A stretch of DNA of 54,885 nt from Candidatus Methylomirabilis sp. (GTDB lineage: Bacteria; Methylomirabilota; Methylomirabilia; Methylomirabilales; CSP1-5): the NCBI GenBank assembly GCA_012974305.1, contig JAAXQN010000202.1:1-54885 (forward strand). The letters run 5' to 3'. The notes beneath the pieces are model-generated. The model had not been told where the DNA came from. It saw nothing but the letters and a program-made list of their open reading frames with translations, and did no database searches. Positions 21,474 to 30,389 of this stretch are shown piece after piece. A program made the position numbers and the translations under genes. Position 1 is the first letter of the stretch; the number at the start of each line of letters is the position of its first letter.

Positions 21474-21557
21474 AGTCCAACGTCCAAAGTCTAACCGACA
21501 AAATCTCTGTTTTATTTGGCTTTGGGTCTTGGACTATGGACGTTGGACTTCGACCGT
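21474..21557. repeat. heptamer-periodic inverted array between convergent uppS and pyrD
   Basis: AGTCCAA CGTCCAA AGTCTAA faces TTGGCTT TGGGTCT TGGACTA TGGACGT TGGACTT. 21474-21491 and 21533-50 are 17/18 complementary. The right arm encodes the pyrD C-terminal tail. Confidence 0.85.
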
Positions 21558-22462
21558 GTCTCGGAGGGAATAGCGGCCCCGACCAGCTGGGTGACGGCAG
21601 CGAACCTATGAAGGGTCAGGTAGGACTCGATTCCGGCCAGGACCTTCATTGGGGCCAACGGATCGAGGAAATTGGCGGTTCCCACCTGGACCGCAGTAGC
21701 CCCGGCGAGGAGGAACTCCACTGCATCATTACCGGTCATGATCCCACCGATACCGATGATGGGGGTTTTCACCACCTGGGCTACCTCCCAGACCATCCGT
21801 ACAGCAACAGGACGGATGGCCGGGCCGGAGAGGCCACCGGTGGCTCCGGGCAGTTTTGGCCGGCGGCTGTCGAGGTCAATGACCATTCCGACAATAGTGT
21901 TGATGAGCGAGAGGGCATCGGCCCCCGCGTCGGCAGCGGCTCGGGCAATCACGGTAACATCCGTCACATTGGGTGAGAGCTTGGGAATCACCGGGAGCGG
22001 AGTGGCTTGCCGGACCGACCGGACCACTTCGTAGGTGAGGCGCGGGTCGGTGCCAAAATCGAGTCCCCCGGCTACGTTGGGGCACGAGATATTGACCTCG
22101 ATCCCGGCCACCCCCTCGGCGTCAGAGAGGCGTTTGGCCAGGTCGGCGAACTCCTCTACTGACTTTCCGGCGATGTTGACCAAGAGTGGAGTCGTCAACG
22201 TTCGGAGAAACGGGAGCTTTTGCTTGAGAAAGAGGTCGATCCCGACATTCTGCAGCCCGATGGAGTTGAGCATCCCTCCCGGGGTCTCGGCGATCCTGGG
22301 GGGTGCATTGCCCGGCCGCGGATGCATCGTCACGGTCTTGACGATAATGGCGCCGAGGGCATTGAGATCAAAGAAGGAGGAAAACTCGTCCCCGTACCCG
22401 AAGGTTCCGGAAGCGGTCATCACCGGGTTTTTCAACGGGATTCCGGCAATCTCGACGCCCAT
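21512..22462 (-). CDS. pyrD: dihydroorotate dehydrogenase, class 1B catalytic subunit
   Basis: The start is taken at MGVEIAGIPLKNPVMTASGTFG. The upstream ORF extension is spacer repeat sequence. Confidence 0.9.
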   Translation of the reverse strand: MGVEIAGIPLKNPVMTASGTFGYGDEFSSFFDLNALGAIIVKTVTMHPRPGNAPPRIAETPGGMLNSIGLQNVGIDLFLKQKLPFLRTLTTPLLVNIAGKSVEEFADLAKRLSDAEGVAGIEVNISCPNVAGGLDFGTDPRLTYEVVRSVRQATPLPVIPKLSPNVTDVTVIARAAADAGADALSLINTIVGMVIDLDSRRPKLPGATGGLSGPAIRPVAVRMVWEVAQVVKTPIIGIGGIMTGNDAVEFLLAGATAVQVGTANFLDPLAPMKVLAGIESYLTLHRFAAVTQLVGAAIPSETRSKSNVHSPRPKAK

Positions 22463-22608: not shown

Positions 22609-23490
22609 TCACCAGGCTATCTCCCGGGCGTCGAAGGCCGGCCCATCCTTGCAGCACAATTTATATGATATCGTTGACTGTCGAGCAGCCAGCTGTTCTT
22701 TGACTGACTGCTTCACGGGGATGACGCAGCCCATGCATGCCCCAAAGCCACAAGCCATAGAGGCCTCCAAAGAGACCTGGCAGGGGATTTGAAATCGGTC
22801 GGCGATCTGAGCAACGGCGTGGAGCATCGCGTGCGGACCACAGGCATAGATTATTAACCCTTGTCGGCTGGTCTGTGTCTTGAGATGTGCTTCCAAGAGA
22901 TCCACAACGAGCCCTCGATGGCCGACGCTGCCATCTTCGGTGGCGACATGCACCTTTGCCCTAGCCTTACGAAGATCGGTGAGACAAAGAACATCATCGG
23001 AGGTCTTGCCCCCGACAAAGGCAACTACTTTCCGTCGACCTTTGTCAGATGAGCGCCGGTTGGTTTTCCCTTGCTGTGAACCTCGAAGGGTGAACTGTGA
23101 ACGTGCGAGCATTTCGGCGAGGGCCACCACCGGAGGAACCCCGATGCCTCCGGCGACCAGCAGGGCTGTGGTGAGACTGGGCGGCACGTGATAGCCATTC
23201 CCCAGTGGACCCAGGAGGTCCACCCGATCTCCCGGCTTAAGGCGGGAGAGGGCTCTGGATCCCTTCCCCATCAATTTGTAAAAGATCTCCACCATGTGAC
23301 CGCCTTTTCTGTTGCTCTCGCGTCGGACCCTCAGAATGCTATAGGCCCTTGGCAGAAAGGGGTCGAACAATCCTGAAGGTTTCACCATGACGAACTGTCC
23401 AGGCTGAAAGCTGAGGGATTCTGAGGTAAAGCGCTGGAGGAAATAATCCGGGTGGAACCTTTGGAGGGATTGCACCTCAACTTGTTGCAT
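22609..23490 (-). CDS. pyrK: dihydroorotate dehydrogenase electron-transfer subunit
   Basis: 293 aa with a FAD/NAD-binding fold and a C-terminal Cys cluster (CGFGACMGC). Contains an extra basic loop encoded by a heptamer array. Confidence 0.85.
   Translation of the reverse strand: MQQVEVQSLQRFHPDYFLQRFTSESLSFQPGQFVMVKPSGLFDPFLPRAYSILRVRRESNRKGGHMVEIFYKLMGKGSRALSRLKPGDRVDLLGPLGNGYHVPPSLTTALLVAGGIGVPPVVALAEMLARSQFTLRGSQQGKTNRRSSDKGRRKVVAFVGGKTSDDVLCLTDLRKARAKVHVATEDGSVGHRGLVVDLLEAHLKTQTSRQGLIIYACGPHAMLHAVAQIADRFQIPCQVSLEASMACGFGACMGCVIPVKQSVKEQLAARQSTISYKLCCKDGPAFDAREIAW
23074..23108. repeat. heptamer array inside the pyrK coding sequence
   Basis: CTGTGAA CCTCGAA GGGTGAA CTGTGAA CGTGCGA. It encodes part of ARSQFTLRGSQQGKTNRRSS. 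Confidence 0.7.
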
Positions 23491-26400
23491 GGCCCATCCC
23501 CCCGTTGTACTCCTGCAATGCCTTGACCTGAAGACCCTCCGTCTTGAGGGCTCGAATCCCCTCCACCGCCGCGTTGGCCGCTGCCATGGTCGTAAAGCAT
23601 GGGATCCCCTGGGTGATGGCAGTGCGGCGGATGGAGTACGAGTCGAGGCGCGAGGCCCGCCCCTCAGGGGTGTTCACCACCAAGACGACCTCGCCATTCT
23701 TCATCCGGTCCACGATGTGGGGTCGAACCCCCTCGGTCACTTTGTACACGCGCTCGGCGGGGATCCCCGCATCCTGAAGGCAGCGGGCTGTGCCGGTGGT
23801 GGCCAGGATGTGAAAGCCGAGTTCGGCAAACGCCTGGCCGAGTGGGGGAAGGTGGGGTTTGTCCGGATCCCGAACGCTCAAGAAGACTGTTCCCTCGAGT
23901 GGCAGCATCCCGCTCGCCGCGATCTGGGACTTTGCAAAGGCGCGACCAAAGTCCCGATCGATCCCCATGACCTCGCCCGTTGACTTCATCTCTGGACCTA
24001 GAATGGCATCGACCCCGGGAAACTTGACGAAGGGCAACACTGCTTCCTTCACCGCCACGTGGTGCACGGCCGGTTCCCGGGTCAGCCCCAGCTCCTCTAA
24101 GGTCATGCCAGCCATCACTTTGGTGGCGAGCTTGGCCAGGGGAACCCCCGTCGCCTTGCTGACGAAGGGGACCGTCCGGGAGGCCCGGGGGTTCACCTCG
24201 AGGACATAGACCGTGGAGTTCTTGACAGCGAACTGGACATTGATGAGTCCTACTACCTGTAGGTCCAGGGCTAACGCGGTCGTCTGCTCACGGATCTCGT
24301 CTAGAATCTTGTCGGGCACCGACCGCGGCGGAAGCGAGCAGGCGGAGTCTCCCGAGTGAATGCCCGCCTCTTCGATGTGCTCCATAATTCCGCCGATAAC
24401 GACCCGCCTCCCGTCCGCGATGGCATCGACGTCCATCTCGATTGCATCTTCCAGGAACTTGTCAATCAGGACGGGATGCTCCGGAGAGGCCTGGACGGCC
24501 CGCTCCATGTAATCGAAAAGACTTGCATCGTCATAGACGATATCCATGGCCCGCCCCCCGAGGACATACGAAGGGCGAACTAGGACAGGATAGCCGACCC
24601 GTTTCGCAATCCGAGTTGCCTCGGTGACCGAGATGGCCGTCCCGCTGAGGGCCTGGCTGAGCCACGATGACACCCTCTGGCTGTTCCCGGTCTAGGATGT
24701 TCATGACATCCTCGAAGGTCAGGGGCTCGAAGTAGAGCTTGTCGGAGGTATCGTAGTCGGTGGAAACCGTTTCGGGGTTGCAGTTGACCATGATGGCCTC
24801 GTAACCAAGCTCCTTCAATGCAAAGGCGGCGTGGACGCAGCAGTAATCGAATTCGATTCCCTGGCCGATCCGGTTGGGGCCGGACCCCAGGATCACGATC
24901 TTCTTCCGAGTCGTCGGGTTGGCTTCGCATTCCCGCTCGTAGGTCGAATAGAGGTAGGGGGTAAAGGCCTCGAATTCGGCGGCGCAGGTGTCCACCATCT
25001 TGAAGGTAGCCTGGATCCCAAGCTTTCGCCGCGCGTCCCGGATGGTAAGTTCATCAGAGCCCGTCAGTTGGGCCAACCTGCGGTCGGCGAAACCCATTTC
25101 CTTGGCGGTCCGCAACTTCTGGGGGGTCAGGAGGCGGAGAAGGCTCTTAGACCGCTCGTGTGCGAGCTCTTCCTCCAACTCGACGATCTCCCGAATATTC
25201 TCCAGAAACCAGGGGTCAATTTGGGTCAGTTCGTAGATCTCTTGAACATTCATGAGCTGGCGGAAGGCGTCCGCAACGTAAAAGAGCCGCTCCCAGTTGG
25301 GTATGCGGAGTCGCTCTCGGATGAGCTCACGCCAAGACTCGCCGTTCATCTCCGTGGCCCTGGAACCGTAACCCGTGATACGGCTCGTCAGGCCGTAGAC
25401 GTCAATCTCCAAAGCACGGATGGCCTTCTGCAGTGCCTCCTTGAAAGTTCGGCCGATGGCCATCACTTCGCCCACCGACTTCATCTGGGTGGTCAGTGTT
25501 TCATCCGACCCCGGGAATTTCTCGAAGGCAAAACGAGGGATCTTCACCACGCAATAATCCAGCGTGGGCTCGAAGGAAGCGGGGGTCGACTGCGTGATGT
25601 CGTTTTTGATCTCATCCAGGGTGTAGCCGACCGAGAGGAGGGCGGCAATCTTGGCAATCGGGAATCCGGTCGCCTTGCTGGCGAGAGCGGAAGAGCGCGA
25701 AACCCTGGGATTCATCTCGATCACGACCAGTCGGCCATCGGCGGGGTCCACGGCGAACTGGATGTTGGATCCACCGGTCTCTACCCCGATCTCCCGGATG
25801 ATGGCGATCGCGGCGTCCCGCATGATCTGGTATTCCTTGTCGGTGAGGGTCTGAACGGGCGCGACGGTGATGGAATCCCCCGTATGGATTCCCATCGCGT
25901 CCATATTCTCGATGGAGCAGACGATGACCACGTTATCGTTTCTGTCCCGCATCACCTCGAGTTCGAACTCTTTCCACCCAATGACCGAGGCCTCAATCAG
26001 GACCTGGTGGACTGGGCTCGTGTTTAAACCCCACTGGACATACTCTTGGAATTCTTTTCGGTTGTACGCGATGCTGCCGCCGGTCCCGCCCAGGGTGAAC
26101 GAGGGGCGGATGATGGCAGGAAAGTCGACCCGTTCAATGATCGCATCTGCCTCCTCAATCGACTTGGCATACCCGCTTTCCGGAACCTCGAGGCCGATCC
26201 TGGTCATGGCCTCTCTGAACAGGTCTCGGTCCTCGGCCTTCTTGATGGTTTCGAGCGTCGCCCCGATCAGCTGCACTTGATGCTTGTCGAGGATACCGCT
26301 TTCAGCCAAGGCCACGGCGAGGTTGAGCCCCGTCTGCCCACCAAGGGTTGGGAGGAGGGCATCCGGGCGCTCCCGCTCGATGACCTTCTCCAAGATTTCC

Positions 26401-26612
26401 ACGGTCAGCGGTTCGACATAGGTCCGGTGGGCCATCTCTGGGTCGGTCATGATGGTGGCGGGATTCGAGTTGACCAGGACGATCTCGAAGCCTTCCTGGC
26501 GCAGAACCTTGCAGGCCTGCGTCCCGGAGTAGTCAAACTCACAGGCCTGGCCGATGATGATTGGTCCGGAACCGATAATCAGAATCTTTTGAATGTCCGT
26601 ACGCTTAGGCAT
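23477..26612 (-). pseudogene. carB: carbamoyl-phosphate synthase large subunit, disrupted by an internal loss plus frameshift near 24650-24665
   Basis: ORF 24531-26612 matches CarB from the N-terminus to ...[11 protein letters not shown], then goes out of frame. ORF 23477-24673 resumes in another frame at ...[36 protein letters not shown] and runs to the MGS-like C-terminus. Confidence 0.8.
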
Positions 26613-26703: not shown

Positions 26704-27969
26704 TTAAGTGGCGATACTTCCTTGCTGGCGGATCCGGGTGCCCTCGACGTGGAGAAGCTCCACCGGCTCGCGCGTACACCGGTTTCGCTCCATCAAAGCC
26801 ACAAAGCGGTCAAAGAGGTAGCGCGAGTCGTGCGGGCCCGGCGAGGCCTCGGGATGGTACTGAACCGAAAAGACGGGTAGGCGAAGGTGCCGCATCCCTT
26901 CGACGGTCCCATCATTCAAATTCACGTGAGTCAGTTCCACCTCCCCACTCGGGATTGAGTCGATGTCGACGGCAAACCCGTGGTTTTGAGTCGTGACCTC
27001 AACCTTCCCGGTGTGAAGCTCCTTGACCGGGTGGTTGGCCCCGTGATGGCCAAATTTGAGTTTATATGTACGGCCACCCAGGGCGAGGCCTAGAATCTGG
27101 TGTCCGAGACAGATCCCGAAGATCGGTCTTTTCCCAAGGAGCTGCCGGGTGGTTTCGACCAGGTGCATAACTCCCTCAGGGTCCCCAGGCCCATTGCTGA
27201 TGAAGATGCCGTCCGGATCCAAGGCCAGAATCTCGTTGGCGGTGGTTGTAGCTGGGACAACCACCACATCGCAACCGGTGCTCACCAGCTGCCGGAGGAT
27301 GTTGTACTTGATCCCACAGTCGATGGCTACCACCTGGAACCGTTGACCGACAACCGATGTCCGTTCACCGAACAGATCTAACTGCACGCGCTTATGCTCC
27401 CGGTCGTCGGTCGTCGGTACGCGGTCATCGCTGTAACCGTGTCCCCATCGCCACTCCCCCTGCCACCATTGGAAGGACTCGCTGCACGTCACTTCCTTCA
27501 CCAGATCACGGCCGATAAGACCCGGAGACGACCGGGCCTTCTCGACAAGGCTGTGCGGACTCGAGTCGACCGTGGAGATGACGCCTTCCATCGCACCCTG
27601 GTCTCGGATGTGTTTGGTGAGCGCACGCGTATCAATCCCCTGGATCCCCACGATTCCCCATTCTTGCAGATAGGCCTCGAGCGTCTTGGACTTTCGCCAA
27701 TTGCTCGGATAGGGGGAGCCTTCCTTCACGATAAAGCCTTCCACAAAGGGGCGTTGGGACTCGATGTCCTCGGGATTGATCCCGTAATTACCGATGAGGG
27801 GGTAAGTCATGCAGACGATCTGCCCCTTGTACGAGGGATCGGTGAGGATCTCTTGATAGCCGGTCATGGCTGTATTGAAGACTACCTCGCCGACGCATTC
27901 GCCTTCGGCACCGAAGGCACGCCCCTCAAAGACGGTTCCGTCTGCTAAGGCCAGGATGGCGGACTTCAT
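26704..27969 (-). CDS. carA: carbamoyl-phosphate synthase small (glutaminase) subunit
   Basis: [20 protein letters not shown] start, overlapping the pyrC stop as ATGA. Catalytic GICLGHQ is present. The interdomain linker is extended. Confidence 0.9.
27341..27435. repeat. complete two-arm heptamer element embedded in frame in carA
   Basis: CGTTGAC CGACAAC CGATGTC CGTTCAC CGAACAG, then 25 nt, then CGGTCGT CGGTCGT CGGTACG CGGTCAT CGCTGTA. Translated as [32 protein letters not shown]. Confidence 0.85.
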
Positions 27970-29312
27970 GACGTCTCCCAAACCACCTGACCGGCCACGA
28001 TGGTCATCACAGCCCTCCCCTTGAGCTTCCATCCGATGAAGGGAGAGTTTTTACTCTTCGATTGCCAGTCATTCTCCTCAACGATCCATTCCTGATCCGG
28101 ATCGAGGATGGTGATATCTGCATCCGCGCCTGGCACCAGCGTTCCCTTGTGCTTGAGCTTCAGGATCCGGGCCGGATTGGTGGTCAACCGTTCTATGATC
28201 ATGGGGAGGGCGAGGAGACGGGTGTGATAGAACTCGGTGAGGATGAGGCCGAGAGCGGTCTCGAGCCCAATGATGCCGAAGGGGGCGTAATCGTACTCCA
28301 TCTCCTTCTCGAAGCTGGCATGGGGGGCATGATCGGTGGCGATGATCTCGATGGTCCCATCGATGAGCGCCTCCCGGAGTGCCGTGACATCCTCGGCCGA
28401 GCGGAGGGGAGGATTCATCTTGGTATTGGTGCTAAAACCCCGGACTGCTTCGTCAGTGAGGATCAAGTGGTGAGGTGTCGCCTCGCCGCTCACCTGTACA
28501 CCCCGGGCCCTCGCCTCCCGGATCAGACAGATTGACTCCGTCGTGCTTACATGACAGACGTGGAGGCGGGCCCCTGTGTACTCACTCAACAGGATGTCTC
28601 GCCCCACCATCACTGCCTCCGCGGCAGAGGGGATTCCCTTGAGCCCCAATTTGGTACTCACGCGCCCCTCGTGCATTACCCCCCCTTCGGAGAGCGTGAG
28701 ATCTTCACAGTGGGGGATCACCGTGATGTCGAACATGGTGGCGTACTCCATCGCCCGCCGCATGAGTTCGGCATTCATCACCGGCTTACCGTCATCGGAG
28801 AGCCCGACGCACCCCGCGGCCGCAAGGTCCCCGATATCCGCCAGCTGTTCGCCGTGGTGGCCCCTCGAGATGCATCCGATGGGGAAGACGTTCACGCGTC
28901 CCACCTTCTTGGCCTGCTCTAAGATGTACTCGGTGACCGATGCAGTGTCGTTCACCGGATCGGTATTCGGCATGCAACAGATAGAGGTGAACCCTCCCCG
29001 TGCCGCGGCCGCGGTTCCGGAGGCAATGGTTTCCTCATCCTCTCGTCCCGGTTCCCGGAGATGCACGTGCATGTCAATAAGACCAGGCACCACGATCTTG
29101 CCGGTCGCATCGATAACTCGGATTTCCGTTTGCCCGTCTCGGCCTGCGGGTTTTTTGTTCTTTCCTGGGCCTCCGGACCCTGAACCCTGAACCCGCTTGT
29201 CCACCTGAAGGATCTGCCCGTCCTCGACGAGAATATCAAGCGTGGCGTCGACCCCGCTGGCCGGATCAATCACTCGCCCACCTGTAATTAAGAGTCGCAT
29301 CTCATACTCCAC
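27966..29312 (-). CDS. pyrC: dihydroorotase
   Basis: 448 aa with [14 protein letters not shown]. The start could be Met5 (29300). Carries an extra Gly/Lys-rich N-terminal loop. Confidence 0.9.
29174..29194. repeat. heptamer triplet inside the pyrC coding sequence
   Basis: CGGACCC TGAACCC TGAACCC encodes the QGSGSG part of the [22 protein letters not shown] loop. Confidence 0.65.
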
Positions 29313-29456: not shown

Positions 29457-30389
29457 TTAGTTGGTGGCCGCGTGTCCGCCGGTCAAAAGATAGAGCAGCG
29501 CCATACGGATGGCCACCCCGTTGGTGACCTGGTCGAGGATGAGGCTGTAGGGACCATCGGCAACCTCCGGGGCGATCTCGACACCTCGATTGAGAGGCCC
29601 TGGGTGCATAATCAGTACGCCTTCCCTCGCCTTTTTCACACGCTCGACGGTGAGACCGAAGAGCCGGCTATACTCACGGAGCGAGGGGAGAAGGGTGGGC
29701 CCCTGCCGCTCCCTCTGGATTCGGAGCATCATAATGACGTCGGCATCCGCGATGGCCGCTTCCACGTCGGTGGTGACCTGGGCGCCGAGTTCCTCGGGGT
29801 GTCGGGGCAGTAGCGTGGGCGGGCCTGCCACGCGAACATCCATTCCTACCTTGCGCATAGCCTGGATCCCGGATCGCGCGACCCGGCTGTGGCTGATATC
29901 TCCCACGATGGCGACCGTGAGGCCTTTTAAACGTCCCAGACGCTCTCGGATGGTGAGCAGGTCGAGGAGGGCCTGGGTGGGATGCTCGTGGGCCCCGTCC
30001 CCGGCGTTTATGATCGAGGCTTGGAGGCGATCGGCCAGGATCTTGGGCGCCCCCGGGACCGGGTGGCGAATGACCACCACATCCGGTCGCATGGCCTGAA
30101 GGGTTTTCCCAGTATCGAGGAGGGACTCGCCCTTGGTCACCGAAGAAACGGTTGTGGAAATGTTGATGACATCGGCACTGAGCCATTTGCCGGCAATCTC
30201 GAACGAGGTCCGCGTGCGGGTGCTCGGCTCGTAAAAGAGGTTGATCAGGGTTTTTCCTCGCAGCGCAGGGACCTTCTTGATGTCTCGAGAGGCGATCTCT
30301 TTCATCGAGTCAGCGGTGTCCAGGATCAGATGGATCTCATCCGACTCCAGCTCTCGGATCGTTAGCAGATCCTTTCGCTTCAAGGCCAT
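29457..30389 (-). CDS. pyrB: aspartate carbamoyltransferase catalytic subunit
   Basis: 310 aa with the STRTR and HPTQ motifs. Confidence 0.9.

Follow-up and report, generated by a model that had tools for sequence, protein, structure and literature searches.

A blunt 137-nucleotide loss that splits carB in a Methylomirabilota MAG is probably an assembly artefact

Naturally split versions of carB, with separate genes for the N-terminal and C-terminal halves, have been reported for Aquifex aeolicus and Methanocaldococcus jannaschii; in these, the split lies between the two homologous halves of the protein (around residue 550) and all residues are kept. The other system with which the present locus compares is the local misassembly or collapsed gap of short-read MAGs. 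The carB described here lies in a window of 54,885 nucleotides, which is the whole of contig C75 of the MAG G000 (282 contigs, 2.82 Mb, N50 15.3 kb, 94% complete). Source names of near-identical proteins place the MAG in the NC10/Methylomirabilota group. The gene is the ordinary carB of a Methylomirabilota bacterium, with about 99-100% protein identity to full-length CarB of the same species and a place in the usual operon; however, unlike the CarB of the TIGR01369 and NF003671 families and of Escherichia coli (1BXR/1JDB), it has 137 nt gone, its frame is shifted and no single full-length product is encoded. Like the naturally split versions, it consists of two ORFs that jointly resemble CarB, but the break interrupts the second half, with about 46 residues gone and the ORFs overlapping out of frame. 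Thus, whereas a natural split would fall at about residue 550, lose nothing and be conserved in relatives, here the break falls after residue 650 with the loss of 45-46 residues.

The whole gene occupies 26612..23477 on the minus strand in two frames. The N-terminal ORF (26612..24531, minus strand) codes for 693 amino acids and follows CarB up to the residues EQPEGVIV, the last CarB-matching codon being the Val codon at 24665-24663. By profile and Pfam matches together with the ORF listing, the 5' part of the gene accordingly comprises 650 CarB-matching codons (24663..26612, minus strand), which hold the carboxyphosphate half, the oligomerisation domain and the first two thirds of the second pre-ATP-grasp subdomain. 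Beyond it, the ORF runs on into an out-of-frame tail of 43 nonsense codons and a stop (24531..24662, minus strand; stop codon at 24533-24531), the DNA of which is genuine carB sequence when read in the other frame. The 3' part (23477..24661, minus strand; 394 codons and a stop), shifted to the +1 frame with respect to the 5' part, holds what is left of the second ATP-grasp domain, followed by the MGS-like allosteric domain, and ends with the stop at 23477. The first-pass annotation had described a carB split into two ORFs with a frameshift, and both the ORF listing and the sequence agree with this description.

The surrounding operon reads pyrR-pyrB-pyrC-carA-carB-pyrK-pyrD on the minus strand. 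Upstream of carB, we mapped intact genes for the small subunit, carA (26704..27969), and dihydroorotase, pyrC (27966..29300), both placed by gene calls on the conspecific contig L020 that were transferred via a gap-free alignment. The genes for aspartate carbamoyltransferase, pyrB (29457..30389), and, downstream, pyrK (22609..23490, overlapping the carB stop) and pyrD (21512..22462) are likewise intact on the same strand, as indicated by the ORF listing, the L020 gene calls and the alignment. The earlier statement that the pyr operon is otherwise intact is thereby upheld: the 14.6 kb common to the window and L020, a public contig with 99.6-99.7% identity, has no second indel.

DNA alignment with 10 same-genus carB genes and 6 near-identical public copies from other samples shows that exactly 137 nt are absent between window positions 24664 and 24663, and a single identical gap is present in every one of these comparisons. 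On the minus-strand reading, the blunt junction at 24663..24664 joins GTCATCGT directly to GGCTCAGCC, with the 137 nt of all other copies missing between them. As 137 nt amount to 45 codons plus 2 nt, the frame of carB shifts. The loss had initially been estimated at about 0.14 kb and as not a multiple of three, an estimate that the alignment has now made exact. Sizing the gap by aligning both ORFs to CarB profiles gave a concordant result, with residues indeed missing. For NF003671, the N-terminal ORF covers profile positions 1-636 and the C-terminal ORF 679-1057, leaving positions 637-678 absent; for TIGR01369, the corresponding ranges are 1-639 and 683-1050. Both profiles have match states at the 45-46 residues that are lost. 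The N-terminal ORF scores above both cut-offs (1118 bits against 599 for NF003671; 1045.7 against 1027 for TIGR01369), whereas the C-terminal ORF by itself is under both (516.8 and 415.5, respectively). A single unbroken frame over both synthetase halves and the allosteric domain is not encoded by the carB of the window.

By reference to the intact protein P0001 of the same species, the lost residues are Q651-L695 and part of G696, namely QFGGQTPLKLAVPLERAGVPI(L/W)GTSSDAIDRAEDRERFRQLLTRL. Alignment to 1BXR places the missing block at approximately residues 641-686 of E. coli CarB, and it includes the GGQTPL loop. In structural terms, the second pre-ATP-grasp subdomain loses its end and the second ATP-grasp domain its first helix. 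The first-pass annotation had assigned the loss to the second pre-ATP-grasp subdomain; this holds for the last part of that subdomain, and the loss further takes ~24 profile positions from the start of the second ATP-grasp domain, the Pfam match to PF02786 in the C-terminal ORF beginning only at profile position 25. Also inside the missing block, by the same 1BXR alignment, is the AEDRERF helix with the equivalent of E. coli Arg675, which the carB of the window therefore lacks. Arg675 is the counterpart of Arg129; mutagenesis in the Raushel laboratory reportedly established both as active-site residues with a role in catalysis.

The lesion is confined to this one assembly. All same-genus relatives have carB as one open frame of 1087-1154 amino acids, and the missing block is present in every homologue examined. 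In a collection of 5.8 billion proteins, we found about 24 full-length CarB proteins (1084-1090 aa) that are 98-100% identical to the N-terminal part from the window, and the 5' part, over 99% of its length, matches the full-length CarB proteins P0001-P0003 of 1089-1090 aa with 100% identity. In the same collection, the truncated product of 693 aa forms a singleton cluster with only this contig as its source, and an exact look-up of this product returned no further record. Two contigs with 99.4% identical carB DNA, L020 (ENA) and L021 (JGI), both have the 137 nt. Likewise, searches with a 34-mer spanning the junction and a degenerate 24-mer gave no match in the metagenome and genome contig collections.

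A separate peculiarity of this gene is a patch at window positions 25300-25420 (carB codons ~398-437; IRALEIDV ... GESWREL), which resembles the allele group P0020-P0024, whereas carB outside it matches P0001-P0003. Either strain recombination or strain mixing in the assembly would account for the patch.

The end points of the loss carry no mark of a biological process. Direct repeats do not flank them in the intact allele, and no inverted repeat or hairpin that might explain slippage, polymerase jumping or k-mer collapse fits them; the single-strand fold of the intact allele is not significant (z = -1.7), and no base of its stem coincides with both ends. The genome also has no Ku gene. Hence, nothing points to slippage or to Ku-dependent end joining (NHEJ). 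An overlap-merge model of the junction (TCAG/TCAA) was also considered; it would require a 3-nt insertion and does not fit. What the junction does have is a neighboring base change, a private A-to-G substitution at 24657 (minus strand), 7 nt 3' of the junction, which replaces Asn with Ser (N698S). Among 25 near-identical sequences, N698S is the sole private amino-acid change of the CarB of the window, and the gene is free of other signs of decay and of relaxed selection. The private nucleotide changes in carB number five in 3136 nt, and a simple calculation puts at about 2% the probability that any of the five would lie 7 nt or less from the junction. A base error beside a blunt join is as expected of an error-prone sequence end.

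The loss in carB is one of a series. We compared ~770 kb of the relative G005 and ~190 kb of G011 with the complete MAG, looking for conserved frames whose counterparts in G000 are broken in two and have lost a block; the reciprocal comparison served as the control. This protein-level comparison was adopted because the nucleotide comparison with the closest species, G011, is noisy and its counts of small frameshifts are symmetrical. Together with a loss in a prdB/grdB-like gene that was examined directly, it brought the further blunt, frame-breaking losses of 44-172 nt in G000 to at least six, five of them in identifiable conserved genes. One of these is in ileS (C260:~841, about 832-845), where the loss of 44 nt removes the conserved DDILDVWFDSGVSQAA block with the DVWFDSG motif. 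This is the only copy of ileS in the MAG; the relatives have a single ileS each with no internal frame break, a few of these copies ending at contig ends. In tig, coding for trigger factor (C150:24266), 145 nt (48 aa) are lost with a shift of the frame, and the GFRxGxxP ribosome-binding signature is gone; tig is intact in 10 of the 10 relatives with a match. The remaining cases are a trkH-like transporter gene (C118:~3090; 172 nt), the prdB/grdB-like selenoprotein gene (C79:~37778; 67 nt, all present in six same-genus genomes, with a mismatch 3 nt from the junction), an unnamed gene (C38:1351; 70 nt, with flanks 95-96% identical to G011) and the ammonium transporter gene amt (C51:~4801), for which the more diverged flanks make the size of ~98-101 nt less exact. 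Counting carB, seven losses are cleanly sized, and not one of these sizes is divisible by three. In the reciprocal direction, G005 gave a single comparable event, whereas G011 gave none. Further, the sole N run of the MAG, 10 N at C269:737-746 in an ftsW/rodA-like gene, stands in place of ~83 nt; thus, the assembly does contain unfilled joins of such a size.

Taken from this pattern in the sequences, the split of carB is probably a collapsed scaffold or assembly gap rather than the biology of the organism. The lesion is unique to one assembly, with near-identical genomes intact; like lesions recur in the same MAG, the indispensable ileS included, and are rare or absent in the two relatives; and the 10-N run is an independent sign of unfilled joins. 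A cell without isoleucyl-tRNA synthetase would not be viable, hence at least the lesion in ileS cannot reflect a living genome. Since the lesion in carB is like that in ileS in being blunt, shorter than 200 nt, frame-breaking, private and accompanied by a junction-adjacent mismatch, a single assembly process is the most economical account of both. From this we infer that the series as a whole stems from the assembly process. Briefly, a scaffolding, gap-closing or similar step might have abutted two sequence ends and left out the intervening ~137 nt, candidates being scaffold joins whose gap was taken out or closed incorrectly and chimeric joins at thin coverage. In the cell, carB would then most likely be one intact gene of ~1090 codons, as in every other copy from the same species. 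In being blunt, free of homology and next to a base error, and in having counterparts of 44-172 nt elsewhere in the MAG, the carB lesion agrees with local misassembly or collapsed gaps in short-read MAGs. Against an artefact, the carB junction differs from the join on C269 in having no Ns, and a de Bruijn assembler can cross a junction only where reads or scaffolding bridge it.

The first-pass annotation had left three readings side by side, an essential gene put out of action, a pair of polypeptides that function despite the missing segment, and a collapse in assembly or sequencing; the evidence now favors the last, makes the first less favored and renders the second very unlikely. An inactivated gene would mean a real and very recent 137-bp deletion allele that is dominant in the population, with carB as a fresh pseudogene and arginine and pyrimidines drawn from neighbors. 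The contig is indeed continuous across the junction, and a genuine deletion in the population sampled would give an identical contig, which counts against an artefact. The same annotation had raised another carB elsewhere in the genome, and none is present in the MAG, nor is a carbamate kinase found above the cut-off; nothing of this kind would therefore mask the loss, and if the lesion were real, the organism would be without a route to carbamoyl phosphate. Cross-feeding in the community could in principle sustain such an auxotroph. However, about 24 near-identical public copies and all relatives are without the lesion, the rest of carB gives no sign of relaxed selection, no repeat- or Ku-based mechanism is at hand, and lesions of the same signature affect the only ileS as well as tig, amt and other genes of this MAG. 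Given these several genes, a common artefact is far more economical than many simultaneous gene losses. We accordingly regard a real deletion as unlikely; its biological corollary, that a free-living NC10/Methylomirabilota strain has just lost its only carbamoyl-phosphate synthase and lives as an arginine and pyrimidine auxotroph through cross-feeding, appears decidedly doubtful.

That the two ORFs would give two polypeptides, or a frameshifted fusion, forming a synthetase active without the missing segment is barely credible. In its favor, each ORF is long and, apart from the break, perfectly conserved, the second might in principle start at a GTG at 24673, and the naturally split carB genes of some thermophiles offer a precedent of sorts. 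Against this, those natural splits lie between the halves with no loss of residues, whereas the block lost here, with its GGQTPL loop and Arg675 equivalent, is one that every homologue retains; the AGAGG motif upstream of the GTG at 24673 adjoins it directly, with zero spacing; and the arrangement occurs in no other genome.

The carB split is hence best filed as a local assembly defect and not as a real feature, and its practical value is as a quality warning on the many such defects in G000, in which we found roughly one blunt, frame-breaking loss of 44-172 nt per 60-100 kb of comparable sequence. As this MAG is a species representative, its split genes, pseudogenes and auxotrophies, that of carB too, are suspect until checked against reads or conspecific copies. 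A metabolic reconstruction in which carbamoyl-phosphate synthesis, trigger factor, the ammonium transporter or IleRS is listed as lacking here would be wrong.

The comparisons with relatives also returned some less clear-cut events and other length differences. Those at amt, on C82 and at C269:4335 are in diverged regions and are resolved less cleanly. Two separate stretches of 194 nt in G011 (L029:8911-9099 and L037:11837-12029) are absent in G000 (C162:~20617 and C36:4199, respectively), and, as the two are of the same length, a small mobile or repeated element of G011 is suggested rather than a loss from G000. Finally, at C126:~7384, a long ORF has an in-frame length difference of 504 nt relative to G005, which is probably a natural variable region.
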